Positions 6,980 through 64,000 are shown, numbered from the stretch's first letter. The stretch: 64,000 nt of DNA from Psammoneis japonica (GCA_008632985.1 QPGO01000073.1:186001-250000), one strand, 5' to 3'. Made by a program: numbers and translations. Notes: generated by a model not told the origin, from the letters alone.

Positions 6980-7375
6980 GACGCGTTCCAGACGTAGGTG
7001 GGAATCCGTGTGACATTGGGCCCGTAGACTTCTACGTGCGAGCTCCGTAGTAAAATTATACGGTAATTAAAATGTCAATGATCGCCAACAGAAAATGAGG
7101 CAATTTTGCGAACGCACAAACTCGCACATGATTGAAGTACATCATTTTTTACTTAGCCAGTTACATTCTTCAGACATTGAAGAATGTAACTGGCGCATTA
7201 TTGTTTCTATAAATTTGTTATATAAAACGTCTGGGGCTTCGCAAAACAGCGAGTCTGGACAATTTTTTTTAAATATCACACGTAGAAATCTACGTACGAA
7301 ACATACGACGGATGATAAAAATTATTGTTGTCACACGTCAGTACTACGAGCTCCCACCTAGGGCTGGAACGCGTC
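6980..7375. mobile_element. Non-autonomous TIR element (MITE), 396 bp, 4-bp TSD TGGC
   Basis: Left end GACGCGTTCCAGACGTAGGTGGG matches the reverse complement of the right end, GACGCGTTCCAGCCCTAGGTGGG (21/23). TGGC lies at 6976-6979 and 7376-7379. Subterminal inverted motifs GTGTGACA/TGTCACAC and GAGCTCCGTAGTA/TACTACGAGCTC. AT-rich interior with normal TA content. Confidence 0.75.
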
Positions 7376-7499: not shown

Positions 7500-8737
7500 C
7501 GAAGAGACAATGGGTGGGACGCCGAATGCTTGTTGCGGTCATCCCTTTGTTTTTGGCAAAGGTGGGTTTTCTTGCCTCTGGTGAGAGCGTGACATCTGCA
7601 ATTTCAACAGGATGAAATCTTTTCGCAGAGTCAGCACCACCATTTTGATTGCTTTGGCAGCATGCATGTCATTTCAGTCATTTTTTTTATCGTGCCTCAT
7701 GCAGCCACTCTCATGAATGAGAGGGGTCAAAAGTTTTCAAAACCGCTTTGGACGCGGTGACAGAACGATCTGAAGCAGCCTTTTGGAAGGCAAACCACAA
7801 GGGTTGCATCAGGGTGCTCAACTCCAGCACCATTCTCGACTGGGCTCCCCGTTTTCGACCTTTTCTAGACTCATTTGACGCGGATGTGGTCAACGGAACA
7901 GATTTAACACAGAGAGACAAGATCTGGGGTGGTGCAACCAGGGAGTTAGTTTTTGATGCAAATGTTTGCAGAGGTGCCAAGGCATTTCAAAATGCTGGCT
8001 CTGTGAAGTAGCGCATTTTGTTCACAGGTTTCAATGAGAGCTGCGGTGGCATTTCCACCCATGTGGAAGGGAGAACAGTTGACTGGGGCGACATTTTAGG
8101 GCATTGGAAGCGTGGTGGGGTGTGCCCTGGATGACGTTCTTTTGCACATCTAAATCACAGCAACACACTGGGGGTGTTCACTGTGCAACATCATTTCATG
8201 GAACATCCAAAAGTCCACTCGACTCCACTTGGACTCAAGCCTGCCATTTCTCCTCTCCTGTTGAAACACGTTCATGCATCTCCCATGAACAAAACCAAGC
8301 TGCTGATGATCAATGACAACGGCTGGAAACACAGAGCGAACATCGCCAGAGCTGTTGAGACAAATTTCAATGGGACTGCAAGGAATGCTCACAATGTGAC
8401 AAAACAACTTGAGCAACCACAGGAACGTTGCTGTGATGAAATGACTGAATCCAAGTTTGTTCTTTGCCCCTCCGGGTTGGGATGGGACACATGCCATCTG
8501 TGGGAGACCCTGATGATTGGATCAATTCCAAATGTTGAGCAGCACTGCAATCGCAGCGATGGCTGGCATGGAATGCTTGAAGGATTGCCGGTCTTGTGGG
8601 TGGAGAACATGGAACACCTCACACCAGCAGTTTTGGAGCATGAGCTTCAGGAATTGCCACAGAAGAGAATGTTTGAGCATGAGAAACTCACCAAGCTTTG
8701 GTGGGTGAATTTCGTCCATTCCTTGTTGCAACACTGA
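7500..8737 (+). pseudogene. Exostosin/GT47-like glycosyltransferase pseudogene
   Basis: ORF 8174-8737 reads SKFVLCPSGLGWDTCHLWETLMIGSIP...LPVLWVEN...EHEKLTKLWW. The family motif is F.LCP.G.G.DTYR.WE.L..GSIP, so YR has become CH. Upstream frames are interrupted and the 5' limit is approximate. Confidence 0.7.
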
Positions 8738-11700: not shown

Positions 11701-11799
11701 CCTGTGAGAGTGCCCACCCTCTGTCCCTGCAAAACTGGCACCACCAATGCAGAGAGTGGTGGAACACAAGATTTGGAGTGGGGCCAAAAAAAAAAACAG

Positions 11800-12920
11800 T
11801 CAAGTTCAAAGAGATGGCACTCACTGTGCCAAGGAAAAACAAAGCCTCTGAGCTCCAATCACCTTTGGGACAAGACACCCATCAAGTCAATCTGGAGAAT
11901 GATCAACACAAGTGGGTGGACGCAGAACTCAAGTGGGGCAGACTCAAGGTTAGACTGCAAGCAGGCACATGGCACAATGTGGCAGCACCCCATGCAAAGC
12001 TGCCACTCAGCTTTGATGGCAACAAAGAACTCCAAAGCATTGAGGACACTGCAGCCCAACAAAGAACATGAGCTGGAAAATGTTTTGCATCACAAGAGAA
12101 CGCAAACTTGCTGCAGTCAAGTGACAGCTGCCAGATGTGCTCCCAGACTCATGCCACAAGCCTGGAGCAGCAAAGAGAGTGCAGAGACTCAATGTGGCAA
12201 CGTGGGTGCCAGTGTGTGACATTGAGTGCCCAACTCCACCCCTGGTGTGACTCAAAGAAAACACAGAAATGCTTGAGAAAGCATGCAAGGAAGCAAAAAA
12301 CATCCCAAGTGCCACAGAATGCACTTGATGGAATGGCTGTGGGAACAAGCACCACCTGCATGTGTGCCACAGTGTGCAGGGTGCTGCACAGATGACAAGT
12401 CACAATGGCTGAGTTTGCTCTGAACCTCTTGTGCTGCAGATGACTTGTCAATGACACAGTTGGAGTTTGGAGTGTGGGCTGGAAACAGTGGAGAGACTTG
12501 GGGACTTTGGAAGCCTTGAAAATGAGCTCAACAGCTCAGGCAACCTGCAGTGGGTTGCCTCCCCACTCTCCACCTCTGCAGTCTTTCTGGATCTGGGCAT
12601 GAAAATTGGAGAAGATGGGTGCATTGTTGCCAAACACATCAAAAACCAGCAAACCTTTGTTTGCACATGCTTTGTTTAAAGAGTGTCATTTGTGGCAACT
12701 TGTGATGATTCTGGATGCAAAGCTCTGATGTGCACAGTTGCACCAATGCTGCAGAAAAGATTGCAAAGAGACTTGTCATGAGAGGTCACAACCAAAATGC
12801 CCAGCCGCCACCAAGAGGCATGCCACGAGTGTCAAGATGGCACAGTTGCAACCACAAAACTCAAAAGATGCCCTGATCAAAACCCACCTTGACAAACCAG
12901 AAGGGGAGCAGGTCTCATGA
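11800..12920 (+). mobile_element. Degenerate reverse transcriptase relic, Penelope-like retroelement
   Basis: DGMAVGTSTTCMCATVC at ~12327 corresponds to GTAMGT..ACMYAT.Y. LCCR*LVNDTVGVW at 12429-12470 corresponds to LYYRRLVDDI.G.W. LNSSGNLQW...VFLDLGMKIGEDGCI corresponds to the FLDL motif. Boundaries approximate. Confidence 0.7.
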
Positions 12921-15615
12921 CACATTGAGCCACTGTCATCAGCTGACGGGGTCAAGTTGTTTGCTGCCATGGCCAGTTGTTGACTGACAACAACAAACAG
13001 AACAGTGCACGTGGGTTGTGACAGTGTGCGCTTTTGCTTTTCATTGTTTGGGGGGAGAGCGCACTGTTGTGAAGTGTGTGGAAAATTGTGCATGTAAAAA
13101 AAGAAAAAAAAACACTGAAAATGCCGTGGGCCAACGGGCTGTGCAAATCTGGGAAGTGTGAAGAAAATTGCAAATTGAGGGTGGGAGGGTGCATGCATGA
13201 GGTGGGCTGCACACATGCAAGGACACACACACATGAGCAGGGAGGACAAAGTTAAAACCAAGTTCAGTTGACAGGCATCAAAAGAAAAACAAAGCCAATT
13301 GAGACATCAGATGAAACACTCAAAACAAGCGCATTTTGTTGAACACTGTTGCTGACATTTTTCAAATTTGACTGGCTGACAATTTTGATGGTGGGTGTGC
13401 AAACATTTGCCAAGGAAAGTGGAAACCCCTGAATTGCACCCTCTGGTGTCCCACCAAATGTTGAGAGCCACACAACAACAATTTCCAACAAGACATCTCC
13501 ATCTCCAATCAGGCCATGCTGACTCTTTCAAGGATGCACCGGCACTGTTTTGGGTGGCTCATAATTTTCTGTTTTTTCTGGGTGGCACACCTCACCCACA
13601 CTGTTTTGCAGCACCTCTGTGCACCCCCAAGCACTTGTGATTGCAAGCATGTCTGCCCCCCCCCATCAAGGCTGTTGCGCTCAGACCTTTGTGCAAACTG
13701 CGCTCATCAGCCTTCAAATGCCAACTGTTGGATTTGGTGCAGGGCTGTGTTGTTTAACAGCAAACCACGGTTTTGGGCCAAACTTGCACTGCCCATGGCA
13801 GACAAGCCACAACTTTCCAGCAAATGCCAGCAATTTTTCCACAATCATTGTCTGCGCATTCCATGTGATGTCTTTCCAATGGACAATCAAGCTCTTGCTG
13901 AATTTTTTTGGCAAATGCACACTCAGTGTGGCGCACCTGGATTGTTCAAAAAAATTCACAAGCTCCAGACAAAATCAACTGTGCATTCTGTTTGTTTTTC
14001 AGGCCCCATTTTCACCATGTGCAGCACAGTGTCAAGGACAAACAAAATGGTCATTGCCCCTCCACATCATTGTCAATGCAGCCTGCTTCATTTTTCCAAA
14101 GATGCCTCAGGCACCTTCTTGCATTGAAAGTGTGAGGAAACAGTGCACACCACCCAGCAGCCCTGAAAAAAAAAGAGCTGTTTTGCTCATCAACACATGC
14201 CACCAGAGTGTCTGTCCATTGGATGCAAAGTCTGTGAGATTTCAACCATTCACCAAGCACTGGGATGACAATCGAATCTTTGGGAAGACAAGCACAAGAA
14301 AGGCATTTGAGCAGGAATTGCCGCAACTTTGGCCCAACATGTGATGGGTGAAATGTGAGATCATCACCGACAAAGCTGCAAGGCCAAATGTTTGTCAAAC
14401 AGCTGAGCCTTTCACAGTGAAAACAACCCTTCATTCGGGTCACTGAAATTTGTGCAACATTGTGATGTCTCTTGTTGCTTTGCAACAAAACAAGCATCGC
14501 AACCTCAAAAGACAACACATCAAGCAAAGCAATTGCATTTTAAGCTGCTCACAACGTTGGTTTCTTGACAATTTTGACAGTGCCTTGATTTGTCAATGTG
14601 AAGAGGGTTGATCCATCAAAAAAAGTGCTGCGCACCTCAAACTTCTTTGATCATGGCTCGGCACCATCATTTCTGCCACAGCCACACAACACAGCAATGG
14701 TGCAACAGCAACAAAAAACACATTTGTTTTTAAACACTTGTGAGTGAGTGGAGCAGGACAAATCATGGTGGTTGCATCGGATGTGTGTCATCGAAAGGGG
14801 TGCCATTCGATGTCATCGTGTTGTGGCCGACTTCGGGGACGAAACGATGTCAAGAGGACACAACATCCACAGCAATCACAATGCACACACTGTGTGAACA
14901 ATTTGTGATGCAATGGAATCAACAGATCATTGACATTTCTTTGACAGGGTTTGGGCGCATCATCGAAAATTTGTCACGCGCCATTGTTTTGTCTTCTTGT
15001 GCCAACAAAAGCAACCTCCGCAGCACCAAAAATGAGTTGCCAGCTAAAAAATTGAGCACATCTAAAAACATTGTTCATTTGATGATGTTGATGCATCAAT
15101 GATTGGATCTCTGCAAGGTGCTCGCTGTGTCGAAAATGCGCCGTTGCCGAAACAGCAGAGTTTTTGACTTGGAGCCACTTGGAGCATTTTCGCGGGGAGT
15201 TCGATGTTTTCAAGATCTTCGTCTTTAAAGATTTTTTGCTTCCTCTCGTAGAATCTGCACTGGTGCCTGCGTTTAAAATGATGTGTTTTAAAACTTTCCT
15301 GCTCATTCTACATCATTTTGATTCATCTTTTTGGTTTGGTTCATTCGTGCCTCGGCACCGTTTCAATCCCGAATCACGACTGAGGTTCATGACTCAAATG
15401 TTCAAGCGGCGAAATGAAGATCGCGAGTTCCTGTCGATCACCATCACTTTGAACTTCTTTCTCATCATCGTACCACTGCATTACTCCATTATTACTTCAG
15501 TGTTGGATTTAGCTAATTGAACTGCGTGTAATGCATCACCAACCATTGTGACAGTCGATCAACAGAATACAACACGAGCTAGAGAGAGTATCCGAGGCGA
15601 GTGACACCATAGGCA

Positions 15616-30620: not shown

Positions 30621-31830
30621 TAAAAGACTTGCTTCAGTGATGATGCTGCTTGGCTCAGATTCAAATGACACACCTTGAGCGTGGACATTGACACCAGCCA
30701 CTGATGACAAGAAGACCAATGGGGTGATGATGACACGGATGAAGAAGCTTCTGAAATTGACGACAATGCACCCAAGGAATGTGACCATTCTGGTTGGTCC
30801 CTGTCTGCTTCTGCTGCTCTCAACTGTGTGCTGAAAGTGTGGGCCAGCCGGTGCCGGCCTGGCTGGCAAAGGAGTGACACCACTTTAAACTTGGATTTGA
30901 TTTTTTCTCTGCAGGGTCCTCACAAGCCATTGGTGGCAGAACATCACTCTTTCTAAATCTTCCAGAGGCCAGCAAAAGTGATGGCAGAGTTGGTGCACCT
31001 GTCCTTTTTTTCTTCAAAGCCAGCACACTGGCTCTGGCACACTTGGCGCTCCTCAAAAGCCATGCCAGCATGCAAAAGAAGAAGCGACAGTGACGCAGTG
31101 GTGTGTTGCAAGTTTTTGGAAGAGACCTGTTCTAGATTCTGGCAAAGGGTTTGTTGTGACAGGTGCTGCTCTCTTGTTTGACAGAGCCCCTGTCCCCAGC
31201 TCAAAACAGACTCATCTTCTTTGCTCAGCACCGCTCACTGAACAAGCTTTGTGTCATCTGCTGGGGGGCGTTGTTCCTTGTGGACAAAGCTTGCACTGGC
31301 ACCAATGTTGGACAAGGCCGCTGATGACTCTCATTTGTGCTTCAATCAGTTTTGGTGCTCACAGGTTCTTGCAGCCACAGTGTGTTGATCTTGCTGCTGT
31401 GCTGCAGTGCATCTCTTTTTTGGCTTGCCATTTGAGGAGGGGGGTGCCAACAAAAGAGTGTGAGTGACACACATGTGGCACAAAGGACACAAAGAGAGGA
31501 AACATTCAAATCAGCAGAAAATTCATGTCTGGAGAGCAAATCTTCAAGCCAATGTAAGCAACACACAAAGAGGCTGCCAGCAAGGCACAGATTGGAGCTT
31601 GGAGCATGCACCCCTGCTGGCAGTGGGAGGTGTCACTCCCACATCTCGCCGGCCGGCTCTGCACTGCTTGCAGCAGACTTCTTTGCATGGAGACATGGCA
31701 AACAAAAAAGTTCACACACACACACACACATGCAGGGGCATTTTAGCTAGACTCAGCTTGAAAATAATGTGTTGTGGCCAATGGCTGCCCATGGCTCCTT
31801 TTGAGAGAGTGTTCACGCGAGTGTGATGCT
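30281..31830. repeat. TpA/CpG-depleted block D
   Basis: Few TA, mostly TTAA/CTAA/CTAG/TTAG. Tyr-poor ORFs on both strands. Confidence 0.65.
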
Positions 31831-34183: not shown

Positions 34184-34519
34184 GGCGTGTTCTTGTTGCG
34201 TTGTGTTGTGACTGCGTTCGTTTTGTGTGAAAACATGCCGCCGCGCCAAACGGTGGATGGCGTAGGTTCTGGTACAAAGGGTACACAGAAGACCGACGCG
34301 GCTTTGGCCGGCGCGTAGAATCCTATGTGATTTATTCAGAAATTTAAGGGCGTATAAAATATTCATTTATGACTAATTTAAGTTATTTGAAATATATAAC
34401 ATTTTGGATATTGATGTTTATCAATGAAAATGCTAGCTTCACGACTATATATTTTCAATGATCCGACGTCATCTTTCGAAATTTCGTCTTGCCCACTTGG
34501 TTGCCAACACAGTGGTGAG

Positions 34520-34616
34520 CGGTTTCTTGTCCTTCTTCTTGGCAGCGTCACCAGCACAAACATGTGTGTGAAAGGGACGCGACTGTTGTGTGCAAGGCAC
34601 TGTTGTCATTGTTGAT

Positions 34617-34652
<36 letters not shown>

Positions 34653-35040
34653 TGGCTCACACACAAGCAGAAAACGGAGAGCTGCTCCTCTGCCGCAGAG
34701 AGACATGCGAGGAGGGCATTCTCTGGAAATGAATGTGCTGGATTTCTGCTTGCCATGTGATGCTCAACCATGATTTTGTGTCTTTGTTGTGTGAGCAGTG
34801 GTCTGAGCTGACTTTGTCATGCCAGAAAAGCATGTGCTCTGGTCAGCCGCAGGGCCAGCACAGCATGTGCCAGAGCAGTCGTGCCAAACCAGAGAGGGGA
34901 AGAGCCAGCCATTGCAGTGTCACAGGAGATCTGAGTCATGTGCAGTAACAGCACAGTGGATGTCTGAACAAGTCTCTGGTCTCTCTACAGTGGTTGGTGG
35001 GAGTTTGATCAGAGGTGTCAGTCGATTCTTCCAGGAACTC
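34520..35040. repeat. TpA-depleted block E with (GA)n microsatellite (~34619-34647), flanking the copia 5' LTR
   Basis: Only a couple of TA in ~500 bp; TG/CA rich. Confidence 0.6.
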
Positions 35041-35316
35041 TGACAGGATTTGAACAGGATTTGGATGCGCGCGAAGCATCGCGCGCTGTTTAGTTTACCG
35101 CGCACAGTTTTGTGTGCTTTAGTTCCGCGCGTTCACGCGCGATGCAGTTTGCTTTCGAGCCACAAGGCTCACAAGAATGACAACAGTGGCCCGATTGTGC
35201 CGACTCACACGTCTTTCGGCTCCTGTGACGGTCTCTGAGCGGAGACTCATCTGCTGTTTAGACAGCAGTGAGGAGTTGTTGTTTGAATTCTTGCCATTTG
35301 CCTTCAATTTCTGTCA
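35041..35316 (+). repeat. 5' LTR
   Basis: Starts TGACAG and ends CTGTCA. 266/276 identical to the 3' LTR by manual alignment. Confidence 0.95.
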
Positions 35317-36258
35317 GATTAACAGTCTTGCTCATTGTCAACCCATTGAGCAACCGCCATCGTCGTCGTTGATTTACCAACGACGCCACTTCAATTCTGC
35401 GTGGACCTCCGTACACATTCTACATACATCGGCAAGTCTACGCGCGTTCAACACCAGGGCATCGGCAGGAAGTTAACGTCACCGTCAAGTCTCCTTACCG
35501 CTGGATGTCTGGATTGATTGCACTGCCTTTGATTGCTGAAGACTTGCATTCAACGGTCACATCCAAGTCCATCCTTGATCATCATCCCTTGACACACCTG
35601 TTCCTCGGTTGACGGTCAAGAACCCCACATGTTCAAGGATCTTAGTCGCTGAAGACACACACACATGTGTGCACATCCTCACGGCCAAGAACCTTTATCC
35701 ACTCTTCGGACTGCGGTTTTGCTGCCACTCTGCAAGCACACCGAGTCCACAGCACCTGATCTGCCCCGGACTGCTGGTGCTCTGCAGTTCTGCTGGGTCC
35801 ACGAGGACGACTGTGAGAGCAAGCAGCCGTGATCACAGCCTGCGTTGGGGCGAGGGTGCTTTCCCGCGTTTGTTCGTTCGTCCACAGTGCCCAACGCCTG
35901 CGTCAACTGGCCAGCCTGATCGGGAAATCCAACCGACATAAAATGAGAACGGTTCGGGGGTCTTGTCCACCTCTAGTCAGCTTACCTGCAGGGGTTTACA
36001 ACCCGCCACTCCGCTCGTAAGCAACCCAAAGCGCCACTGGCTGCGGGTTCGGACGTGCCGGCACAACTCTACGGACCGGATGGGAAGTTTAGCACTTGAC
36101 AACGAATGGGATAACAAAAACCCGGCGACTTCTGATTTTAAGATAGTTCAAGATTTCAAGTCAAGTCCATTTCAAGTCAAGTCCATTCTCACCCAAGTTT
36201 CGAGTCTACCTTCGCTTCCCAACCAGAATTGATTGTCCTGACACCACTTTTGTCTACC

Positions 36259-39200
36259 ATGGTTCTCACTCTTCAGCAACAAACCGATGGTTTCGAGCAC
36301 GTTGTTGGAACCGTGCTTGCCCAAGGTGCTGGGAGTCCTCTTCGTTTGGCTTTGGCCCAAGACGGCACGGACTCGCATCAGGAACCATTCACGTTCATGC
36401 CGTCCCAAATCGACTCGCTTGAGTGCGACAACGGCACTGATGTGATCCCTTTGCCCCGTGGTTATAAGAACATGTTAGCAGCACCAGTCAGTCTGTGCAT
36501 TGTCAAAGCACACAAAGGTCTTGACGTTGCCAACGACTCCTCCTTGTTCACGCATGACGAGTTCCTTGCCTGCCGCCTCAGCCCCGACTGCATGTCTTCT
36601 GTGTCCATCGGCAGCTCACCCCTTGCACCTCCACATGTCACCAACCCGACCAAGGCACGCGACCCGGTGCGGGACTTCAAGCGAGGCATCAAGCGTGATC
36701 CCACCGCTTTCACGGCTCTCAAATCCGACAAGCAGTGGCACACTTGGCACACCTCACTTGTGGCACAAGCCCGTGCCCAAGACGTCGAGTGCATTCTAGA
36801 CTCGTCGTACAAACCGACCAGCCCCGAAGACAAACTGCTCTTTGCTGAACAGCAAAAGTGCATGTTCGCCGTCTTCGAACGCATCCTTCTCACCGACAAG
36901 GGCAAGGCTCTCATTCGCGAAAATGTGGGGTCTTCTGACGCACAGACCGTCCACCGCTCCTTGTCTGAGCACGCGCTTGCCTCCACCCGCGCATCTGTCG
37001 AGTCCTCCACCCTGCTCACGCACCTCACCACCGCACGTCTTGGTGATGGCACTTGGAAAGGTCCGACCCACGGGTTCATCCTTCATTGGCAAGATCAGTT
37101 GCGCAAGTGCGAGGCACTCATCCCGGCCAGTGACCACTTCTCTGAAGGACAGAAGTGCGTCATGCTCGAGAATGCCGTGCACCCTGTCGAGGAACTCCGT
37201 GCTGTCAAGAACCAAGCTGATCAGCATCGTACGCAGAGTGGCAAGAGCCTCACATACGATCAATGCTGTGGCTTGCTCCTCTCCGCGGCAGCTCAGTACG
37301 ACAGCACGTTTCAACCCAAGACGACACCTCGAGCTCCCCGACGCGCCACACACGCACACGACGTCTACTCCGAGGAACCGTCCGACGATGTGTTCTACGA
37401 CATTGACAGCGACGTTGACGTCCTTCAAGCCAATGCTGCCTGCACCCGCGGTCCCAGCCTCACCGGTGTCCAATGGAGACGTCTCCCTCCCGACCACCAA
37501 CGGCTCTGGGATTCGTTGCCCGATTCCTCCAAGGCGATCATCCTTGAGCATTCTCGTCCGCCTCCCCGCAACCCGCGAGCCAGTGACTGCCATGAGTCTG
37601 TTGCGGCCAACCTTCACGACCAACGCCTTGGGAGTGACGGTGATGTCAACTTGTCCAACACGACTCCTGCTGACTCTGGTGACTCCGCTCCACATGTTGA
37701 CGCCACTTTGGACAATCCCATCCTGGCGCACCTCACCAAGCGCAAGCCACTGCCACCCGGTGATCTGCAACGTCTGTTGTCTCCTAACCAAGCCCCCAAT
37801 GCCAGTCGACCGGGGCCATCCGCCGCTTCCTCTACCCCGCCAGCTTCTGCAGATGACACAGAACTTAACGGCCGCACTTGCCGCCGCGTCAACAACCACA
37901 ATGTCATTTGCTCTGCCTCTGCTCATCGCTCCACACGCACTGGCGCTCTAGTCGATCGTGGGGCCAACGGCGGCATTGCTGGCGACGACGTTCGCGTCAT
38001 TGCACGCACCTCTCGCCAAGTCGACGTTCAGGGCATTGACGATCATCAATTGGTGGACATCCCCATTGTCACCGCTGGTGCCGTCATTGAGACCCAGCGT
38101 GGTCCCGTCATCGCCATCCTCCATCAGTGCGCATGCACGGGCAAGGGCAAGACCATCCATTCCTGCGGCCAGCTCGAATGGCACAAACAGGATGTCAACG
38201 ATCGCTCTGTCAAGGTGCCCAACGGCTTGCAACGCATTGCCACTCCTGATGGCTGTGTCATCCCCATTGACATCAAGGCTGGCCTGCCTCATGTTGCCAT
38301 GCGACCTTGCGCTGACGCCGAATGGGACACCCTGCCCCATGTCATCCTCACCGGCGATGACACATGGGACCCTTCCGTCCTCGATCACTCTGTCACTGAC
38401 GACGACCAGTGGTACGACGCGATCTCTGACCTGCAGGACGACCCCACTGCCAACCCATTTGACGAAAACGGCAACTACCGTCACCGTGTCGTTGTCAACG
38501 AGACCATCTTGTCCGCTTCCTTGTCTGCCGATCACGCGTCCGCCCTCGATGATCACCTCATTCCGAACGACGACGTGTTCTACGCGTGTCATCTGCATGC
38601 GATTGACCCCAAGGGCGATGACGTTCCACCTCCGGAGCGCACTGTACAGCCCAAGGACCCCCCCTTCGAGTCTCTTCGGCCTTGCTTTGGCTTCCTACCC
38701 ACCGACACGGTCCGTCGTACTTTTGACTGCACCACGCAGTGCGCCCGCATGCCCGCCGGCACACACCTTCGCAAGGCCTTCAAATCACCCAACCCCGCCC
38801 TTAATGTGCACCGTCGCAACGAGCCCATCGCCACTGACACCATTTGTGCCGACACCCCGGCCGTCGACTCTGGTTGCACCAGCGCCCAACTGTTTGTTGG
38901 CACCGAGTCTACCGTCACTGACGTCTACGGCACTAAGACGGACAAAGAGTTTGTCAACACACTTGAGGATCAGATCCGTGAACGTGGTGCCCCATCCAAA
39001 CTCATTAGCGACCGTGCTCAAGTTGAGATCAGCAACAAAGTGCTCGGGATCCTGCGCGCCCTCTTCATCTCCAGCTGGCAAAGTGAGCCTCACCAGCAAC
39101 ACCAAAACTTTGCCGAGCGTCGATGCCAGACTGTGAAGCGCATGGCGAACACTGTCATGGACCGTTTTGGTTCGCCCGCCCACACATGGCTGCTGGCGCT

Positions 39201-41928
39201 CATGCACGTGTGCTTCACACTCAACCACACAGCGTCCCCACGTCTCCACTGGCGCACGCCCCTCGAGACTCTCACTGGATCCACCCCGGACATCAGCCCA
39301 TTGCTTCGCTTTCACTGGTGGGAACCAGTGCACTTCCACCTTGATGACTCCGATTGGCCGTCCGAATCCCGTGAGTTGCGTGGACGCTTCGTTGGCATTG
39401 CTGAGCACGTCGGCCACCAGATGACCTTCAAGATTCTATCTGACGAGACTCAGAAGATCCTCCACCGGTCCAACGTTCGCTCCGCTGCCCCCGATCCTGC
39501 CGTTCGAAACCTGCGTCTTGATCCTCCTGATGGGGAGCCACCTGAACCCATCATCAAATCTCGCCATGACGACAACCCCGTCGATTCTCCTGATGGGGAG
39601 ATCAGGACACCCAAGATGCCAGTTTTCGATCCGCAAGACATCATTGGACGTACCTTCCTCATGCAGCCACAAGAGGATGGACAACGCCACAGAGCTCGCA
39701 TCGTCAAGGCCGTCGAAGACCACGAATGGAAAGTGAACGGCAATCCCGAGCTCACCAAGTTCGTCTGCTCTGTCAACAATGACGAATACGAGGAAGTCCT
39801 TGCCCACAATGACATCATGAATCACATTGAGCAAGAAGACGAAGACACCACCATTTGGAAATTTCGACGCATCGTGTCACACGAAGGACCTCTGAAGCCT
39901 CACGACCCAACCTGGAAAGGCTCAAGCTACAACATCATGCTTGAATGGGAAAGTGGGGAGATCACGTCCGAGCCTCTTGCCATCATCGCCAAGGACGACC
40001 CCGTCACCTGTGCCATCTATGCACGAGAGAACGGACTCCTCGACACGGATGGCTGGAAGCGGTTCCGCACCATCGCGAGGCGCCAAAAGAAGCTATTTCG
40101 CATGGCCAACCAAGCCAAGCTTCGCTCCTTCCGCACTGCACCTCGCTACAAGTGCGGATTCGAAGTTCCCCGGAACTGCAAACACGCCATGTCACTGGAC
40201 GAACGCAACGGCAACCGCAAGTGGGGAGACGCAACTAATCTCGAGATGGACCAACTCGACGAATACGAAGTCTTCCATGACTGCGGGCCCTTCAAGTCTT
40301 CCACTCCTCCTGCGGGACACAAGAAGATCCGAGTGCACCTGGTGTGCGACGTGAAACACGACGGTCGCCACAAGGCACGACTCGTAGCCGACGGGCACCT
40401 CACGGACGTACCTGTCGACAGTGTCTGCTCCGGAGCAGTCTCCCTCCGTGGCCTTCGGCTGATGATTTTCCTGGCCGAACTCAACGAGCTGGAGACATGG
40501 GCCACCGACATTGGCAATGCCCACCTTGAAGCCACCACCAAGGAGAAGCTTTACATTGCAGCTGGACCCGAATTTGGCAAACTCGAAGGACACATCCTTG
40601 TCATCCACAAGGCACTGCATGGACTCCGCAGCTCCGGTCTCCGCTGGCACGAGCGCTTCGCCGACTGCCTGCGAGCTGAAGGCTTCTTCCCCTGCCGCGC
40701 CGAACCCGACATTTGGATGCGCAGGAACGGCGACCACTGTGAATGCATTGCCGTTTATGTGGATGACCTCGCCATTGCCATGAAGGACCCTCAATCTTTC
40801 GTCGACACTCTCACGGAAAAGTGCAAGTTCAAGCTCAAGGGTGCGGGACCCATTGAGTTCCATCTGGGTTGCGACTTTTCCCGGGACCCCGACGGAACCT
40901 TGTGCCTGTCTCCGCGCAAGTACATCGAGCGCATGGTCGACAGCTGCGCCCGACTGTTTGGGGAGAAACCTGCCACCAACGCCCTGTCACCTCTAGAGAA
41001 GGGTGACCACCCCGAACTGGACACTTCCGAACTGCTGGGACCCGACGGCATTCACAAGTTCCAGTCTCTTGTTGGTTCACTCCAATGGGCAGTGTCCCTT
41101 GGTCGAATTGACATCACCACGGCCATCATGTCACTCTCCAGCTTCCGAGCTGCGCCCCGTCAAGGCCACTTGGATCGTGCCAAACGCGTCTGTGGGCACC
41201 TCTCCAAGATGCGACACGGTGCTCTCCGCGTTCGCACGGAAGAGCCCGACTGTTCGGATCTCCCTGCTCCGGCCTGTGAATGGATGCATTCCGTGTGTGG
41301 TGAAGCAGAAGAGATGATCCCGAAGGACGCTCCACCACCCCTTGGCAAGTTCGTCACTGCCACCCACTGCGTCGATGCAAACTTGCACCATTGCATGCTC
41401 ACCGGACGCTCTGTCATGGGAATGCTCCACTTCCTCAACAAATTCCCAGCTGATTGGTTCTCCAAGAAACAAGCCACCATGGAGACTGCAACCTGCGGAT
41501 CTGAATTTGTTGCCGCAAGGAATTGTGTTGAGCAGATTGTCGACCTGCGCATCACCCTGCGCTGCCTTGGCGTCCCGACCCGCAATGTTGGATGCATGTT
41601 CGGTGACAACAAGTCGGTTGTAGACAGTGCCACCATCCCGCACTCCAAGTTACACAAGCGACACACCGCACTGTCGTTCCACCGTGTGCGTGAGGCAATT
41701 GCCTCTGGTCACCTTGAGTTCCACTTCATCGAAGGCTCCCGCAACCCTGCTGACATTCTCAGCAAGCATTGGGGTCACTCCCAAATCTGGGACCTTCTCC
41801 GACCCCTCATGTTCTGGAACTTCATTCCATCCGAAGTCGAATCTGTTTCTGTGGCTCCTCAAGCAAACTGGGGAGTGACAGGATTTGAACAGGATTTGGA
41901 TGCGCGCGAAGTATCGCGCGCTGTTTAG
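36259..41928 (+). CDS. Gag-Pol polyprotein (protease, integrase, chromo-like segment, RT, RNase H), Tyr-depleted
   Basis: PR: LVDRGANGGIAG. INT: LISDRAQVE, SEPHQQHQNFAERR. RT: HKARLVADGH, DIGNAHL, KALHGLRSSG, VYVDDL. RH: VDANL, GSEFVAA, GDNKSV, NPADILSK. Confidence 0.9.
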   Translation: MVLTLQQQTDGFEHVVGTVLAQGAGSPLRLALAQDGTDSHQEPFTFMPSQIDSLECDNGTDVIPLPRGYKNMLAAPVSLCIVKAHKGLDVANDSSLFTHDEFLACRLSPDCMSSVSIGSSPLAPPHVTNPTKARDPVRDFKRGIKRDPTAFTALKSDKQWHTWHTSLVAQARAQDVECILDSSYKPTSPEDKLLFAEQQKCMFAVFERILLTDKGKALIRENVGSSDAQTVHRSLSEHALASTRASVESSTLLTHLTTARLGDGTWKGPTHGFILHWQDQLRKCEALIPASDHFSEGQKCVMLENAVHPVEELRAVKNQADQHRTQSGKSLTYDQCCGLLLSAAAQYDSTFQPKTTPRAPRRATHAHDVYSEEPSDDVFYDIDSDVDVLQANAACTRGPSLTGVQWRRLPPDHQRLWDSLPDSSKAIILEHSRPPPRNPRASDCHESVAANLHDQRLGSDGDVNLSNTTPADSGDSAPHVDATLDNPILAHLTKRKPLPPGDLQRLLSPNQAPNASRPGPSAASSTPPASADDTELNGRTCRRVNNHNVICSASAHRSTRTGALVDRGANGGIAGDDVRVIARTSRQVDVQGIDDHQLVDIPIVTAGAVIETQRGPVIAILHQCACTGKGKTIHSCGQLEWHKQDVNDRSVKVPNGLQRIATPDGCVIPIDIKAGLPHVAMRPCADAEWDTLPHVILTGDDTWDPSVLDHSVTDDDQWYDAISDLQDDPTANPFDENGNYRHRVVVNETILSASLSADHASALDDHLIPNDDVFYACHLHAIDPKGDDVPPPERTVQPKDPPFESLRPCFGFLPTDTVRRTFDCTTQCARMPAGTHLRKAFKSPNPALNVHRRNEPIATDTICADTPAVDSGCTSAQLFVGTESTVTDVYGTKTDKEFVNTLEDQIRERGAPSKLISDRAQVEISNKVLGILRALFISSWQSEPHQQHQNFAERRCQTVKRMANTVMDRFGSPAHTWLLALMHVCFTLNHTASPRLHWRTPLETLTGSTPDISPLLRFHWWEPVHFHLDDSDWPSESRELRGRFVGIAEHVGHQMTFKILSDETQKILHRSNVRSAAPDPAVRNLRLDPPDGEPPEPIIKSRHDDNPVDSPDGEIRTPKMPVFDPQDIIGRTFLMQPQEDGQRHRARIVKAVEDHEWKVNGNPELTKFVCSVNNDEYEEVLAHNDIMNHIEQEDEDTTIWKFRRIVSHEGPLKPHDPTWKGSSYNIMLEWESGEITSEPLAIIAKDDPVTCAIYARENGLLDTDGWKRFRTIARRQKKLFRMANQAKLRSFRTAPRYKCGFEVPRNCKHAMSLDERNGNRKWGDATNLEMDQLDEYEVFHDCGPFKSSTPPAGHKKIRVHLVCDVKHDGRHKARLVADGHLTDVPVDSVCSGAVSLRGLRLMIFLAELNELETWATDIGNAHLEATTKEKLYIAAGPEFGKLEGHILVIHKALHGLRSSGLRWHERFADCLRAEGFFPCRAEPDIWMRRNGDHCECIAVYVDDLAIAMKDPQSFVDTLTEKCKFKLKGAGPIEFHLGCDFSRDPDGTLCLSPRKYIERMVDSCARLFGEKPATNALSPLEKGDHPELDTSELLGPDGIHKFQSLVGSLQWAVSLGRIDITTAIMSLSSFRAAPRQGHLDRAKRVCGHLSKMRHGALRVRTEEPDCSDLPAPACEWMHSVCGEAEEMIPKDAPPPLGKFVTATHCVDANLHHCMLTGRSVMGMLHFLNKFPADWFSKKQATMETATCGSEFVAARNCVEQIVDLRITLRCLGVPTRNVGCMFGDNKSVVDSATIPHSKLHKRHTALSFHRVREAIASGHLEFHFIEGSRNPADILSKHWGHSQIWDLLRPLMFWNFIPSEVESVSVAPQANWGVTGFEQDLDAREVSRAV

Positions 41929-42151
41929 TTTACCGCGCACAGTTTTGTGTGCTTTAGTTCCGCGCGTTCACACGCGATGTAGTTTGCTTTCGAGCCACAA
42001 GGCTCACAAGAATGACAACAGTAGCCCGATTATACCGACTCACACGTCTTTCGGCTCCTGTAACGGTCTCTGAGCGGAGACTCATCTGCTATTTAGACAG
42101 CAGTAAGGAGTTATTGTTTGAATTCTTGCCATTTGCCTTCAATTTCTGTCA
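41876..42151 (+). repeat. 3' LTR
   Basis: Direct repeat of 35041-35316, followed by TSD AACTC. Confidence 0.95.
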
Positions 42152-42520
42152 AACTCGACAAGCACAATCGGAACGTGCTGCATGCTGCGAGCGCTGTATG
42201 TTCGACCGCGCGCGGTCAAAGTACGTACGTCGTCACGCAAAAACCGCAACGGCTCGCGGTAGTAGCGGTATCGCGGTGATAAAGCCACAATAACAACTAC
42301 CGGCACAAACTGTTGACACCCTTCCACAAAGAACCAAGAAGAAGTAGAGAGGTCAAAAGCTTACATCTATACTCGATAGTGCATCAGTCTGTTGTTGAAG
42401 TGCTTACATCGAACGTATGTTTTTCTAGAGAGTTTGAAGAAAGAAAACATACCGAAAATACAAAACTCGCGAACCATACACATTATTTACAGCGAGACCG
42501 CGTTTGTTTCTCAGAAAAGC

Positions 42521-49264: not shown

Positions 49265-51280
49265 GAATTCGCATTCACCAAGATCAATCGCACCTGTGTT
49301 GGCAGGCTTGGATTCGAGCAAAAACTGGTTGAGCAGAGATGAAGCTTCATTGTCGATGGGAGCAACCACAATTGCTGCAGCAGAGCCACGTGCACCACAG
49401 ACAAAAGTCCACATCCAGTTTGGGAGGTGGATCATCATCAGCAAATGGGAGAGGTGTTGGAGACTGGCAACCAAAGCATCCACAGAAGGCCCTCAAAGAC
49501 AAGGCCACAGGGGGGATGTGAAGAGTTCTTTGGAGGCTGGAGTTGGGTCAATGTTGGTGACAAGAGAGGGTGCCAGCAGCAAATCCTGCAGGACGAGAGA
49601 GGAGCTGTGGGTCTCTGAGCTCCTCCTGCTCAAGATGCAAGATGTGGAGATCAGCCACAGAGTGCAAATCCCCAAGCAGGGCTTTGAGCATGTGGTGAGA
49701 GGGCATTGTTTGGGAGAAAAAGAGCTGGCATGCTGGCAGTGGCAATGGAGTCTCTGGCAGAAAAACACAACAACCTGTGTTCCAGAAACCTTGCCAAAGC
49801 AAAACAGCAGGCAAGAAGCTGGGTGAGAACAGTGCAGCTGCCAGATGTCCATTCCTCAGCCAACAAGGGGCAATCCAGAAGGACATCATCTTGAGAAACA
49901 TTGGAGCAGGTTTCCATCATGTGCTTGGAGCAATGCACAAGACTGGTCATTGTGGATTCTTGCATGTGTCAGCGCCATCAAACTTGAGAGCACCCAGGTT
50001 CCATGTCATGAAGTGTGGTGAGCTTGCTTGCTGTGTGGGCACACATGTGACACATTGTGGATTTCAAAAGTGTGCAAGCTGCAGTCAGCTCCAGAGACCA
50101 AAGAGATGCAAATCCACAGTCTCACAGAGGTTTTTGGTGTCACAGTGCTCCTGCTCCAATGACAAGCAGACAAAGCACAAGTGGTGTGCCCAGAACAGCA
50201 GAGTTGCATTTCGTTGGGGCCACTCAAATGCCACCAACACAAGATGTGAAAAGACAGCTGAGTCTGCACCAGATGAGTGGGGTGGGTTGGGGTGGCAGAA
50301 GAGTTGGGCTTGGCTTGAAGAGTCTTGCAAATTGCTGCCATTTTCCTCATCTCAATGAGCAACCTCACCATGACAATGGGCCAGGTCTCTTGTTTGCATT
50401 CAACCAAAAGACAATGGTGGCACACTTGACAGCCAGCTGTGCTGTGTGTTGGTTGGTTGCTGGAGCATGCTGGGAGGGAGCACACAGCTGCAGCGTGGTG
50501 TGCTGTGACAGCAGTGTGGAGCTGGGGGATCAGAAGAGCCTGGAGGAGTCAGAGCTGTGTCCCATGGATGAAAAGACCTGGGATCATTTGGGGATTCAAG
50601 TGAGCTTGTTGTGTTGGCACACAACACACCCCCATCCCCGTGTGCAGGTGTCACAGCCAATGTGGTCAAGACCAAAGATTGGTGTGTGCCATGGTGTGTC
50701 ATCATGACAAGTCTGGCACTTTCTCCCTTGAAAGAAGCAGCACACATGCACCAATCTCTTGTTTTTCCTGCACACTCTCTCTCTTTCTCTGCTGAAGTGC
50801 TGCATCAGCTTGTTCTTGCAAAGTGTGTGTTGGTGTGGGAGGAACTGCAGCAATGGCTTTCTGTGGCATGTTCTGTTTTCACATGCCATTGTTGCTGGTT
50901 TCTCCCCAATGTCAGCGGGTGACAAAAAAGACATTCCACTGCAAGCGAGCCAAACATTTTTGCACATCTTCCGCACCTGCTCTCAGCACGCCTCATTGTC
51001 GGGTGTGTGCGGCAGTTTTGAGAGCAGTGCCACAAAAGAAACAAGAGGAGGGACCCCATGTGTTCCTCACCTTAATGCAGCACTTTGCCATTGGCCAAAT
51101 GCACTGGCATCATGCGCCATGTTTTTCTCGTGCTGCTGTTGTCTTTTTTGCACAGCTGCAAATGATGATGAACAACACACACAGGGTGGAGGGGAGATGC
51201 CGATGCACATTTCGAATTCATCGTCGCGCGGTGCCGCGCCCGTTCACGCCACCATTTCCGGGTTTCGGGGACGGCGGACG
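49265..51280. repeat. TpA/CpG-depleted block F
   Basis: I found a single TA (CTTAAT, ~51073) in ~2 kb. Confidence 0.75.
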
Positions 51281-59599: not shown

Positions 59600-62500
59600 C
59601 GTCTTGCTGCTCCTTCCCAGGCCTTCACAACCCCATCAAACGATGCAAACTCGACAAATGTCAACCACGCACATCGTCTACAAACCAACGGGATTAGCAG
59701 CAGCTTCCACACCAGAAATCAAATCTGTCCAACTTACCCCCGATGAGCCCTTGAATCTGCTGACCCCCAGAAAAACATTGCTGGCACACTTTTGTCGGGT
59801 GTGGCCACTTGCAGACCTCCCACCTGGGAGTGGGGTGTGGCACCCAATCCAGCCTAGAGGCCCTTCAAGCAGAGAAGAAATCAAAACTCAGAAAAACAGA
59901 TTCCTCCATCACACTCAGCACCCTGCTCACATCCGCCCAAAGTTTTTTTCTCTCTCTGTGCACTTGGCAAAGGTTTCAGACAACATCGCTGGCCACTCTT
60001 CAAGCAAATCCACTGTGCTTCTTCCAAATTGCACCTGGCCCACCACAGCCACCATTGCCATTTTCACAAACCATGCACAGGTGTCTTTTTTGTCAGCCCT
60101 CCCACATTGACCAAACTTGTTCACACTCCACCTGCGACCCCTCCAAAGCAAAAACTGCACATTGGCACACAAATGATGGAGCCCAAACTCAATCTGTCAG
60201 TCCAAGCAATCAGCCATTGCATGCAACCATTTGTGCAGCTTGCCTGTTGTGTCCTCTTCCTGACATTGTCCTGCACGTTGTTCCTCTTCCTGTTGAGTTT
60301 TTTCCTGCTGAGAGCGCTTCCTTGCATGCATCCCAGAGTGCCTCTGATGCCAGAGCCATGCTCATCAACTCCTGCACCACCATTTGCATGTGCTCTCCTC
60401 CTGCAGCAATTTTTTTGTTGAAGCAAGATTGTGAGCTTGCCATGTGGCCACACATTTGTTGACAACACCTTTGTCGGTGTGGCCCCAATCAGTGTTTTGG
60501 CTGACTGATGGAGCACAATCCATTGCATGACATCGCTCCACAGGAGTGACAACAGAGCTTGAGCTGCTCCTCAAAACCTGGAGTCAGCCAGCTCAACTCC
60601 CTGCATTTGTTCCTTTGTGCACTCAACAAGCCCGCAAGCACACCAGAGCTCATGGTCGCTGTGAAGCATGACGCCAAATGGGGCAACTCTGACTTGTTCA
60701 CAACTTGCCACTTGACACCACACTCCCACCATCTCACATTGTTGCTCCCACAAAAACCATTTCCTCCATCTGCTTTCCTGCTCCAACTGGTTGCACTGGT
60801 GTTCATTTGTGTTGTTTGCAAGTGATCTTTTCTGTTTTGCCATTGTGTTGGCTTCTCCCAGATTTGCTCAAACAGGTCTCTGTGCCAGTTTTGTGAGCGT
60901 GTTTTTAACTCAACATTTGAGTCATTCAAATCCTTCCAAAGCTTTGAAATGTGCTCCACTGTGATCAATCCAAACATGCAAGTGTGCATTTTGTCAAATT
61001 TTAATTTTGTGGCCTTCAAGATGAAGTTTTGTCAATGGCTGCCAGGTTGCTCATTCCTTCATCTTTTCTGACACCCTCCTGTCATCAGTCATCAACACAC
61101 CACAACAATCTCATTTGGCACAAAAAATGCAATGCCTCCATCTCCAACTGGCATGACTGTTGCCCAAAGAGAACAGTCACATCTTTGAAAATTTGTGTCC
61201 ATGCAGATTTGCCAACCCATTTGGCCACAAAACTGCACATTCTCTGTTCCCCCATCACAGATGGTTGAAGTTGGCACTGGGGGATTGATCTTTGCTTTGG
61301 GTGCACTCTTTTCAGTCAACCCCATTGTGCCAAAACTTTGTTCAGAAAGAAACAAAATTCTTGTGATGGAAGCACCAATCTTTTGTTGCTTCTGCAGATC
61401 AATGCCAAACACTGCCCAACTCATGACAAGAAGGATGATGAAGCTCAGTGCTGCATGTGCCCAACAGGTGGGAATGAGCACCTGACAAGCAATTGCAAAA
61501 TCACCACAACTGCCACCAAGATTTTGCACAACCACCAGCAACATGACCAAATTGATGCTCAATTTCTGGCATGTGACGGTGGCACAGGAAACGTGTTCAG
61601 GCAATTGTGACAGTTCATTGCACAAATGTCAATGTGACACCAGTGCCAACTTCAACCAGCTGTGATGGAAACAGAGAATGTGCAGTTTTGTGGCAAAGTG
61701 GGTTGGTGAATCTGCGTAGACATCAGAGAGCAAAAAATTTGGAGGAAAATCCAACTTGCTTGACACATGACCAGTCTTTCCCAAATGTGCATTTTGGGTG
61801 GACCAAAAATTGGCACTTTGGTTGAACCAAAACATTTTGGTTGACCAACTTGCAAACCAACCAAATCAACTTGGTGCGCCAATTTGATGTTTGTGAAATC
61901 TCGACCAAACTCATTTTGTGCACATTTTTTCTGCACAAACAAAATGCTGGTGCAGCTCAAGCAAAATTTGTGCAGTGTGTTGACATGCATGGTTGCTTTC
62001 CATTGGTGGAATGTTCCCTCTGAAGCACACCAAATTCTGCCAACCAAAATGATGTTTTCAAGAAACAAAATCATTTTGGTCATGAGCATCAATTTTGTCA
62101 ACAAATTGCACCAACCCAAGTGCCCATTTTGGTCAACCAAAATGCACACTCAGGAAATGCCATTGCAGAGTTTTGGATCCAGAAAAGCAGGGCACACTTC
62201 ATTCAGGACATGACATGAACACAAACAACATTGCACTCTCACTCATGCAGCCAAAAATTGTCAACTGCATGAATGGAGATGTTTTTCACGAGTGCAGATT
62301 TGTCAAAACAGCAACATGTCTTCAATCAAATGGAGAAATCACCTGACTGCAAATCAAACGCTCTTGATGGCAGGAATGAGACCTGGATCATTGGTGTCCC
62401 AGAGATGTGCAATCTTGGGCTTGCTCCAATCCATCTTCAAGAATTGGAAAAATCTGCTTCACTCCACAGTCATCTTGCAAAGTGTCCTGTGACCGCTGCC

Positions 62501-64000
62501 CCCAAAACCTGGAGCTCATCAAGTCATCAAGTTGCAGCTTTGTGGTTCTCTGTCTTGGACAACAGTTGACATTGTCCTGTTGCATCGCCCCATCATGTGT
62601 GCCCTGTTTGTGATCACATTGAACTTTGAGAAATGACACTCCAGCAAACACATTGCCACTCTGCTCCATTTGATTTCTGGATTTGATGTGCCCAACACCT
62701 TGACATCCATCCATCAAACAAAAAGTGGCTTCAATCTGACCTTGCTGCAGCAGCTGCTGCTTTTGCCACCAAAAGCAAATGTCAATGGGGAGCCACACTG
62801 AACCTGAAAGCAAGTCCTGTGCCAAATCAAAGGAAAATTAACCAAAAACAACACCTCATCACACCAGCCAAACTGATGACACATGAAGTTCAATGATGAA
62901 ACAAAGACATCAAATGCAATGCTGGGCAGTCTGAAGTCAAGACAATGGCTCTGGAAAAAATGCCAAGCTGTGTCCATTCGTGTGTCCTTTTGTTCAAACA
63001 AATGCGGAGCAAGATGCTTTTCTGCCAGAGCAATGCCTGCAACTCAACTCTGACAAAGATTGCAGCACAGACAAGAAAAGGTGACACCTGCTGTTGGATG
63101 CTTGCAGCTGGAGAGCCTCTCAAATTGTCCTTGAATTGGCTGAAGCAGCAGCCCCATGGATCTGGGATTCTTGCCACACCTCAAATGCGCTTGCACAAAT
63201 GGGGCCATTAGAATTTCAAACAAAACTCTTTTCAATCTCCAGCAAATGCCATTTTCAATCTGTTTTGCCTGGGAATCATGTTCCAGAGCAAATTTTTTGC
63301 TGTGGTGCAGGGTTGGGAATGATGTGAAGCCCACAGCATTTTGCAGAAAAATGCAAGCTGATGACTCGGTGACCATGACTCCAAACCAATGACTTTTTTG
63401 CAGAAAGCTGCAAGTTCTCACATTTTTCCCAAACACCAGAGCTCAGTGCAAAAATGGCGCAGTTCCAGAACATTTCCCTGGAGCAGCCCTGGTCTTTCTC
63501 AACTGCTCCTGCTGGCATTTGTGTGATGCACTCCAGCCCCGCCCAGGTGGGGCTCCATGTGACGTGGGCCTGCAGAGCTCCATTTGCAAGCTCCACAGCA
63601 AAGTTGTCAAGCAGCAAACGTGCAAACAATTGTCAACAGAAAAAGAGACAATTTTGCAAATGTGCCTCCTCTTTCACAGTTAAGCACATAATTTCAAGTT
63701 TGCCTGGGTGCACTCTTCAGACACCCAGCCTGGTTTTGCCGCCACCGATGTTGGCTGAGCACCCAATCATGTCAAACACTGCCATCAAATGATTGCTGAT
63801 GTCTTGTTGCCCATGCATTTGTTGTGTGCAAGCAACCCAGCAATTCAACAATGGAGCAATGGAGCTCAAATTGCAATCCATCCAATCATTGCAACAAATG
63901 AGTGACAAGTTGCCATGTCAGTGGAGTGTGTCATGCAGTTGCACAAGAGTGATTTCGATGACAATTGCAAGTGAGTGTCTCAAATTCATGGAGACATTTT
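59600..64000. repeat. TpA/CpG-depleted block G (degenerate elements; runs off the window)
   Basis: About a dozen TA in 4.4 kb, mostly TTAA/TTAG/CTAG. Contains inverted repeats. Confidence 0.7.
61786..62148. mobile_element. Degenerate TIR element relic
   Basis: TGTGCATTTTGGGTGGACCAAAAATTGGCACTTTGGTTGA resembles the reverse complement of the right end, TGTGCATTTTGGTTGACCAAAATGGGCACTTGGGTTGG. Repeated TTGGTTGACCAA/TTGGTCAACCAA motifs. Confidence 0.55.

Follow-up and report, generated by a model that had tools for sequence, protein, structure and literature searches.

Why should the two long terminal repeats (LTRs) of a retrotransposon, identical at insertion, now differ almost exclusively at TA dinucleotides, and why should the protein encoded between them have Cys or His where its relatives have Tyr? 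Both questions were raised by a Ty1/copia-type element in a 64,000-nt stretch of Psammoneis japonica DNA (QPGO01000073.1:186001-250000), hereafter the window, to whose first letter all coordinates refer. The evidence given below indicates that the element, and to saturation several blocks of the surrounding DNA, were probably converted by a TpA-specific A:T to G:C mutational process that acted on the element after it had inserted.

The LTR pair, the protein and the direction of change

The LTRs were the single direct repeat pair found by a repeat search, 276 nt each and 96% identical. Together with their TG/CA termini, a 5-bp target-site duplication and an RVT_2-type reverse transcriptase (RT), they give the element hallmarks of the Ty1/copia type (Table 1). 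Position-by-position comparison revealed exactly ten differences, transitions throughout; at all ten sites the 5' LTR carries G or C where the 3' LTR carries A or T (sign test, p = 0.002). Nine of these were TA in the 3' LTR against TG (seven) or CA (two) in the 5' LTR, while the tenth was CG in the 5' LTR against CA in the 3' LTR; the first and last differing sites were 35077 and 42113. Positions within a TA make up 26 of the 276 in the LTR, yet nine of the ten differences fell there (binomial p = 5e-9). The 3' LTR has 13 TA, none of them converted relative to the 5' LTR, which retains four of these 13 (0/13 against 9/13 converted, p = 4.6e-4). These nine changes arose after insertion. A first-pass annotation of the same DNA had also counted ten differences in 276 sites between LTRs flanked by an intact AACTC duplication, every context that it listed matching ours, and about 18 Tyr in about 1890 residues; the open reading frame (ORF) contains 18 in 1899 aa.

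The direction of change was read from the protein, for whose RT half 1537 database relatives were found, the best 120 being 52-73% identical. When the element was compared with the 93 of these 120 that exceed 1700 aa, Tyr was low (0.95% against a mean of 3.81% and a minimum of 3.13%), Cys was high (2.74% against a mean of 0.93% and a maximum of 1.41%) and so was His (4.74% against a mean of 3.53% and a maximum of 4.26%). Alignment with the first 50 full-length relatives of 1800-2000 aa among the best 120 gave 766 conserved columns (at least 80% consensus), and the element differed at 91 of them. At the 38 conserved Tyr columns the element has Cys 17 times and His nine times (26/38) and keeps Tyr nine times, whereas the same count of Tyr to Cys or His was zero in 41 of the 50 homologues, one in eight and two in one; the consensus of the relatives at these columns was Tyr, not Cys or His. 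Seven Tyr motifs had been singled out by the first-pass annotation. Six have consensus Tyr at all the positions claimed, while in the seventh, HCVDANLHH, only the first claimed Tyr is conserved.

TA was depleted in all three codon phases of the element: per 1000 codons it occurred 9.5, 6.8 and 6.8 times, whereas 37 relatives with long ORFs averaged 37.2, 41.7 and 72.2. The synonymous phases had lost it as heavily as the Tyr phase, indicating that the loss was mutational and not a matter of amino-acid choice. Judged from these homologues, the polarity is TA to TG or CA, the opposite of fungal repeat-induced point mutation (RIP). The first-pass annotation had deduced this polarity from Tyr, had set it against RIP and had proposed inactivation by missense with the frame left open; TA is low, no stop interrupts the 1899 codons and the changes are missense only, in agreement with these claims.

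The change was specific for TpA. Taking the 3' LTR as the starting state and sorting the adenines of both strands by their 5' neighbour, A to G was found at 9/26 adenines in TA, 0/45 in AA, 1/37 in CA and 0/35 in GA (p = 5e-7), that is, at 1/117 adenines outside TpA. This restriction excludes a general A:T to G:C bias as well as a WA-type signature. Among 47 inferred conversions (38 Tyr codons and nine LTR sites), 33 gave TG and 14 gave CA; since both outcomes were present, both strands were targeted, with more A to G on the sense strand in this copy (p = 0.008). An enrichment at TpA over other A/T contexts and an action on both strands had been proposed earlier, and both were borne out. The four TA retained in the 5' LTR all lie within TTTA, and the base at -1 was T at 6 of 16 retained against 6 of 47 converted sites, numbers too small for a conclusion on context beyond the dinucleotide.

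The LTR pair also provided a clock. Events numbered 1.18 for every TA of the 5' LTR and one in 500 non-TA site-lineages (0.002 per site), a ratio of about 590, or at least about 106 at the 95% upper bound on the background, which is a rough figure with one background event. In the element the observed/expected ratio (o/e) was 0.17-0.24 for TA, of which 68 remain, and 0.93 for CG, and because CG is intact the loss of TpA must have been much faster than CpG decay. The GC content of the element is 56%, against 49% for the window.

Contigs of four sequencing runs (X1 to X4) were placed on 33500-43500 in order to compare the window with other copies. Depth was 47-62 in the flanks, while the element drew 13,375 contigs with a summed depth of 46,525-229,504; the family is very highly repeated, although summed depth is not a copy number. 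The element was assembled even from three very small runs whose single-copy flanks showed zero depth. Places varying among copies in X1 comprised A>G 69, C>T 70, G>A 55 and T>C 52, and all transversions together 42. Of the 303 variant places in X1, the 40 listed included 33 inside the element and none at the nine LTR sites, and the following counts refer to these 40. Transitions made up 27 of the 33, all 27 lying in a CA, TG, TA or CG of the window. Four adjacent pairs that are CA in the window read TG elsewhere in the family, and four Tyr codons kept in this copy were TGC in 80-93% of the depth of other copies. At 42022/42023 all three states occur, TA in the 3' LTR, TG in the 5' LTR and CA in 67% of the depth of other copies; such three-state sites are the pattern expected of independent events on one ancestral TA.

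Both insertion junctions were reproduced with no differences by two contigs, 34656-35061 and 42124-43500, at depths of 59 and 56. Farther upstream, at 33724-34371, X1 and the window differed by seven substitutions, mostly transversions, and four small insertions, and a two-allele bubble was seen in X1 at 33750-17 (depths 29.3 and 22.3). These discrepancies could stem from a heterozygous diploid source, from another haplotype or from errors in the local assembly.

Metagenome contigs scanned with the family alignment yielded 79 loci with about 62-66% protein identity to the window element, which belong to other families and possibly other hosts; the best nucleotide identity of the element to any of them was about 70%. 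Two of the 79 (L076 and L068) show the Tyr to Cys or His changes together with the loss of TA. In L076, TA o/e was 0.02 and CG o/e 0.44, and 1 of 37 aligned Tyr was kept (nine Cys, 13 His, eight Phe); in L068, TA o/e was 0.31 and 14 of 37 were kept (11 Cys, five His). The median Tyr to Cys or His share was 4% over 80 sequences, comprising the 79 loci and the window element. A third locus, L021 (781-aa ORF), has normal Tyr codons (37.1 per 1000), while TA in the other phases was 3.8 and 2.6 against minima of 16.9 and 36.0 in the 37 relatives; this could reflect a lineage shaped by TpA-directed mutation under selection, or host codon usage.

TA-free blocks, the insertion site and the spared 3' LTR

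A 1-kb profile of dinucleotide o/e along the window showed that the TpA signature is confined regionally: TA o/e was 0.17 in the element and 0-0.08 in a set of saturated blocks (Table 1), while host ORFs and the downstream flank were normal. The blocks consist of complex sequence, not simple repeats, and jointly cover about 17 kb, about a quarter of the window, with 36 TA, 198 CG and 3956 CA+TG. Their CG o/e was 0.05-0.47 and their CA/TG o/e 1.7-2.0, the element being the milder case. For host ORFs in the window, which include a chromo-SNF2 helicase, CreA, sideroflexin, Nse4 and glycosyltransferases, TA o/e was 0.32-0.70, CG about 1 and Tyr 1.4-5.3%; the best named relatives of the sideroflexin are from diatoms, at 62-70% identity, which points to a diatom host. 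A dinoflagellate spliced-leader motif had no match, and a dinoflagellate host was rejected in view of the sideroflexin.

Two origins of the blocks were considered and rejected. They are not copies of the element, as tblastn of two unmutated polyproteins against the window matched this element only, and self-blastn of the window rejected their being copies of one another.

Because TAA and TAG are gone, the blocks contain ORFs of 110-259 aa in all six frames. A Pfam search with 56 of these ORFs gave one credible match (GT47/RXYLT1_C), sub-threshold matches only for two and none for 53. The credible match belongs to a GT47-type glycosyltransferase pseudogene with a diatom protein among its relatives. 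Tyr, at 4.0% in 20 relatives, is absent from it, and His makes up 6.2% of the whole match and 9% of the C-terminal 200 aa, where all eight conserved Tyr are lost (three to His, three to Cys, one to Leu and one to Phe). A conserved Arg has become His via a CAT codon, as CpG decay would give. The pseudogene has in-frame stops, and starts in normally composed DNA with its body in a saturated block.

Upstream of the 5' LTR, 34601-35000 has two TA, a CG o/e of 0.14-0.29 and flank-level depth, whereas downstream of the 3' LTR 42201-42400 has 13 TA and a CG o/e of 1.5, which is normal. With an old block upstream and normal DNA downstream, the element therefore landed at a pre-existing boundary. Conversion was no lighter at the 3' end of the ORF than in the rest of the element: between 40945 and 41776, Tyr is lost from all 13 columns in which it is the majority residue (11 Cys or His, two Phe), and 41001-41600 has no TA. 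The limit of conversion is bracketed by a converted Tyr codon at 41776 and an intact TA at 41912.

Since the LTRs were identical at insertion and yet were treated differently, targeting by sequence homology alone is argued against. The first-pass annotation had taken repeats as such for the target, a view not supported here: the flank block of single-copy depth and the GT47 pseudogene share the signature, and the 3' LTR, identical at insertion, was left untouched. The sparing of the 3' LTR is compatible with an effect of position or chromatin; this LTR may, for instance, lie in the active promoter region of an ORF starting at 42380.

The proposed process and its rivals

We propose that a Ty1/copia-type LTR retrotransposon inserted in a diatom chromosome next to a block that had been silenced before, and that about 70-75% of the TpA dinucleotides of its interior and 5' LTR would then have become TpG or CpA. 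The agent would be a mutational process specific for TpA, changing A:T to G:C and outpacing background substitution by a factor of at least about 100. Every event would destroy its own target, so that all sites would end as TG or CA. No stop codon could arise, as TAA and TAG would be destroyed and Tyr turned into Cys or His, and the element would be disabled by missense with its frame open. The same process at saturation, together with slower CpG decay, would give the TA-free, CG-poor blocks, one of them with a host-type pseudogene. The choice of targets would appear to depend on where the DNA lies in the chromosome, or on its chromatin state, and not on sequence homology. As for the chemistry, deamination of adenine in DNA is a tentative candidate, and modification or mispairing of the TpA thymine is an unlikely one.

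The first-pass annotation held such a pathway to be undescribed. On this point it was overtaken, as the same signature was reported in 2026 in the chlorarachniophyte Bigelowiella natans (bioRxiv 10.64898/2026.01.13.699255). According to the main text of that preprint, 231 of 302 nuclear mutations in 15 mutation-accumulation lines fell in two integrated viral regions, and 230 of these 231 were A to G or T to C, all 230 on TpA, at a rate of about 6e-7 in the viral regions against 3.5e-10 elsewhere. The targets there were integrated DNA of nucleocytoplasmic large DNA viruses and virophages; 1-kb clusters were depleted of TpA and enriched in CpA+TpG, reverse transcriptase and DDE domains were enriched among the TpA-depleted coding sequences, and the candidate put forward was an ADAT2-like deaminase, unproven there (bioRxiv 10.64898/2026.01.13.699255).

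The two cases share A to G or T to C changes almost exclusively at TpA, with TpG or CpA outcomes, a regional restriction with normal neighbours and a rate far above background, and by this analogy the process in P. japonica may be the same. They differ in that the host here is a diatom (a stramenopile), that the targets comprise an LTR retrotransposon, with its internal clock, and a host-type pseudogene, and that the blocks are saturated (TA o/e 0-0.08), with CpG lost too and one of two identical LTRs spared; the events in B. natans were seen de novo, whereas those here are known from their traces in the sequence. A term search of the main text of the preprint found no mention of CpG, LTRs, retrotransposons, diatoms or stramenopiles, and in three diatom papers (PMC2806351, 10.1101/2025.10.24.684338, PMC6604790) TpA, hypermutation and RIP were absent as terms. 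Our literature search found TpA hypermutation in print for the chlorarachniophyte and none for diatoms. The process is thus already known as of 2026, and what is new here is the host lineage and the target class.

Several points weigh against our proposal. The 3' LTR is wholly spared, with the boundary within about 100 nt of its first base, which no simple targeting model predicts. Any link with repeats or chromatin is hypothetical, the DNA covered being one 64-kb window, and the four runs represent one sample, kept as contigs, possibly the assembly's own source and with the platform unrecorded. The two junction contigs end before the first and last differing LTR sites, and the assignment of alleles to the 5' or 3' LTR was taken from the assembly alone. 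Reverting one TG or CA to TA undoes only 30 of the 91 differences at conserved columns, the remaining 61 being ordinary divergence. Some of the variation among copies is CA/CG or CG/TG, for example at 41046 (CG in the window, TG in all others) and 41337 (CA in the window, CG in others), and six of the 33 element variants listed are transversions. The excess of TG over CA is reversed in L076 (nine Cys, 13 His). No enzyme, modified base or de novo event was observed here.

In a still wider reading, which we consider doubtful, diatoms and chlorarachniophytes would share an old editing system for double-stranded DNA, directed by position (chromatin domain) and not guided by homology, that erases TpA from silenced or foreign DNA hundreds-fold above background. 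With CpG decay it would leave DNA without TA or CG that is unable to encode Tyr or TAA/TAG; active retrotransposons would purge synonymous TpA and keep Tyr, as L021 suggests, and the spared 3' LTR would mark a chromatin boundary at about 100-nt resolution.

The main alternative to a position or chromatin effect concerns this LTR only. The process would be real, and the asymmetry secondary: with both LTRs mutated or mutable at first, gene conversion would later have replaced the 3' LTR by the sequence of an unmutated LTR elsewhere. The boundary falls at the LTR edge, as would that of a homology-limited tract, and the family offers very many donors; however, most LTR copies appear converted at the one informative site listed (67% C at 42022), so that a fully unconverted donor would be unusual, and neither a tract end nor a mosaic was seen inside the 3' LTR. 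We regard gene conversion as rather unlikely.

It is improbable that the changes preceded integration, through ADAR-like editing of element RNA or deamination of cDNA during reverse transcription. In the established strand-transfer scheme both LTRs are copied from one template, and earlier edits would have left them alike, whereas they differ at nine TA. Both strand outcomes occur within the same element, and the flank block at single-copy depth and a pseudogene that is not a transposable element (TE) share the signature. The sense-strand excess of A to G over T to C (33:14) would suit such editing, and some interior changes could come from an edited template; ADAR moreover prefers U 5' of the edited A, according to the Discussion of the B. 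natans preprint (bioRxiv 10.64898/2026.01.13.699255).

An artefact, in which a modified base at TpA or repeat-confused polishing was misread and the real DNA is still TA, is very unlikely. Such extreme repetition (summed depth in the element against 47-62 in the flanks) does invite consensus errors, the window and X1 disagree at the seven substitutions and four insertions of 33724-34371, and the LTR-specific alleles come from the assembly. Nevertheless, X1 contigs carry TA, TG and CA alternatives among copies, and they reproduce the TA-free flank block at 34656-35040 with no differences. The B. natans events, for their part, were called from Illumina reads (bioRxiv 10.64898/2026.01.13.699255, main text). 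A miscall on two strands at the palindromic TA should also give CG and TA, and the blocks are nearly without both. The separately assembled metagenome contigs L076 and L068 share the Tyr to Cys or His pattern.

Polymerase eta, known from somatic hypermutation, makes A to G changes at WA motifs, with TA among the hotspots. Error-prone repair synthesis of this type in silenced DNA, in place of a base-modifying enzyme, would account for the TA preference and for the strand bias, but AA was changed at 0/45 against 9/26 for TA, and the events of B. natans were all at TpA in the main text of the preprint (bioRxiv 10.64898/2026.01.13.699255); we give this explanation little credence.

That the polarity was the opposite, with RIP-like C to T change at CpA (and CpG) on the 3' LTR and with the 5' LTR and interior ancestral, is hardly credible. 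An LTR pair alone gives no direction, RIP classically turns CA/TG into TA, and the tenth difference (CG against CA) is compatible with C to T on the 3' LTR. Yet homologues of other hosts at 65-73% identity have Tyr at the 26 of 38 columns where this copy has Cys or His, the element is poor in TA and free of stops, and TA, TG and CA coexist at 42022/42023, where only TA is one step from both others.

Related systems and further features

RIP changes C:G to T:A mostly at CpA, which raises TpA, makes stop codons and lowers GC. What was found here resembles it as a dinucleotide-specific transition hypermutation that disables mobile DNA in place and leaves a scar detectable by a dinucleotide index; unlike RIP, however, it changed A:T to G:C at TpA, removed TpA, made no stops and raised GC. 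RIP depends on duplication, whereas the flank block at single-copy depth shares the signature. Fungal RIP was rejected as the cause on the TA o/e of 0.17-0.24, the 1899 codons without a stop and the opposite polarity.

Decay of methylated CpG also has TG and CA as products and accounts for the loss of CG in the old blocks (CG o/e 0.05-0.3). It leaves TpA untouched, whereas the element has kept its CG (o/e 0.93) while losing TA (0.17), and TpA loss is therefore a separate as well as a faster process. Editing of retroelement RNA or cDNA by ADAR or APOBEC enzymes acts on one strand before integration and leaves both LTRs alike. The likeness lies in an enzymatic hypermutation with a neighbour-base preference; the difference is that here both strands are affected and the LTRs differ at nine TA sites.

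To the B. natans record this locus adds the LTR-pair clock, saturated blocks over about a quarter of a gene-rich window and a sharp sparing that bears on target choice. If the proposal is correct, A:T to G:C defence at TpA is not limited to one chlorarachniophyte and operates in diatoms, whose genomes are TE-rich and which rank among the dominant primary producers of the sea. Large tracts free of TA and CG, which gene finders could misread as long ORFs in six frames, would be explained by it, and a simple dinucleotide index would serve to spot silenced foreign DNA in protist genomes. LTR pairs would be natural rate clocks, and a spared against a converted LTR a natural contrast for what directs the process. 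Also of technical interest, if real, would be an enzyme able to edit a palindromic dinucleotide of chromosomal DNA at its adenine or at the thymine paired with it.

Table 1. Coordinates of the element, the saturated blocks and the pseudogene in the window
Feature	Position	Strand	Basis
Saturated block; TA 5, CG 44, CA+TG 629 in its two flagged segments	4101..7000		Dinucleotide profile
GT47-type glycosyltransferase pseudogene	7811..8731	+	46% identical to P0241 over 311 aa; Pfam
Saturated block, 7 kb; TA o/e 0.02-0.06, CG o/e 0.05-0.47, CA/TG o/e 1.7-2.0	8001..15200		Dinucleotide profile
Saturated block, short	31001..31700		Dinucleotide profile
Older TA-free, CG-poor block abutting the 5' LTR; X1 depth 47-59, flank level	34501..35040		Profile and contig depth
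Target-site duplication AACTC, left copy	35036..35040	+	Read directly
5' LTR, 276 nt, TG...CA	35041..35316	+	Direct-repeat search and LTR comparison
Gag-pol ORF, 1899 aa, open	36229..41928	+	ORF call, composition, alignment with homologues
RVT_2 (PF07727) reverse transcriptase domain, residues 1361-1572	40309..40944	+	Pfam, E = 1.2e-24
Purine-rich tract ending GGGGAG, abutting the 3' LTR, polypurine-tract-like	41865..41875	+	Read directly; function inferred
3' LTR, 276 nt, TG...CA	41876..42151	+	Direct-repeat search and LTR comparison
Target-site duplication AACTC, right copy	42152..42156	+	Read directly
Saturated block; 1 TA, 12 CG, 384 CA+TG in 1600 nt	49601..51200		Dinucleotide profile
Saturated block, continuing past the window end	59801..64000		Dinucleotide profile

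Pfam detected no rve integrase domain in the element copy, nor in the unmutated homologue P0014. A profile of 21 family members gave a weak integrase-core match upstream of the RT (profile positions 918-1016, retroviral integrase cores, E = 0.002-0.007). An Rfam search of the window found nothing.

Outside the element, a chromodomain and SNF2 helicase gene (CHD-like) is present as three long ORFs at 18623-25791 (+), a chromatin remodeller adjoining silenced blocks. A 693-aa minus-strand ORF without a Pfam match contains, at 57263-59072, three units in tandem that are each about 550-600 nt long and share 68-74% identity.

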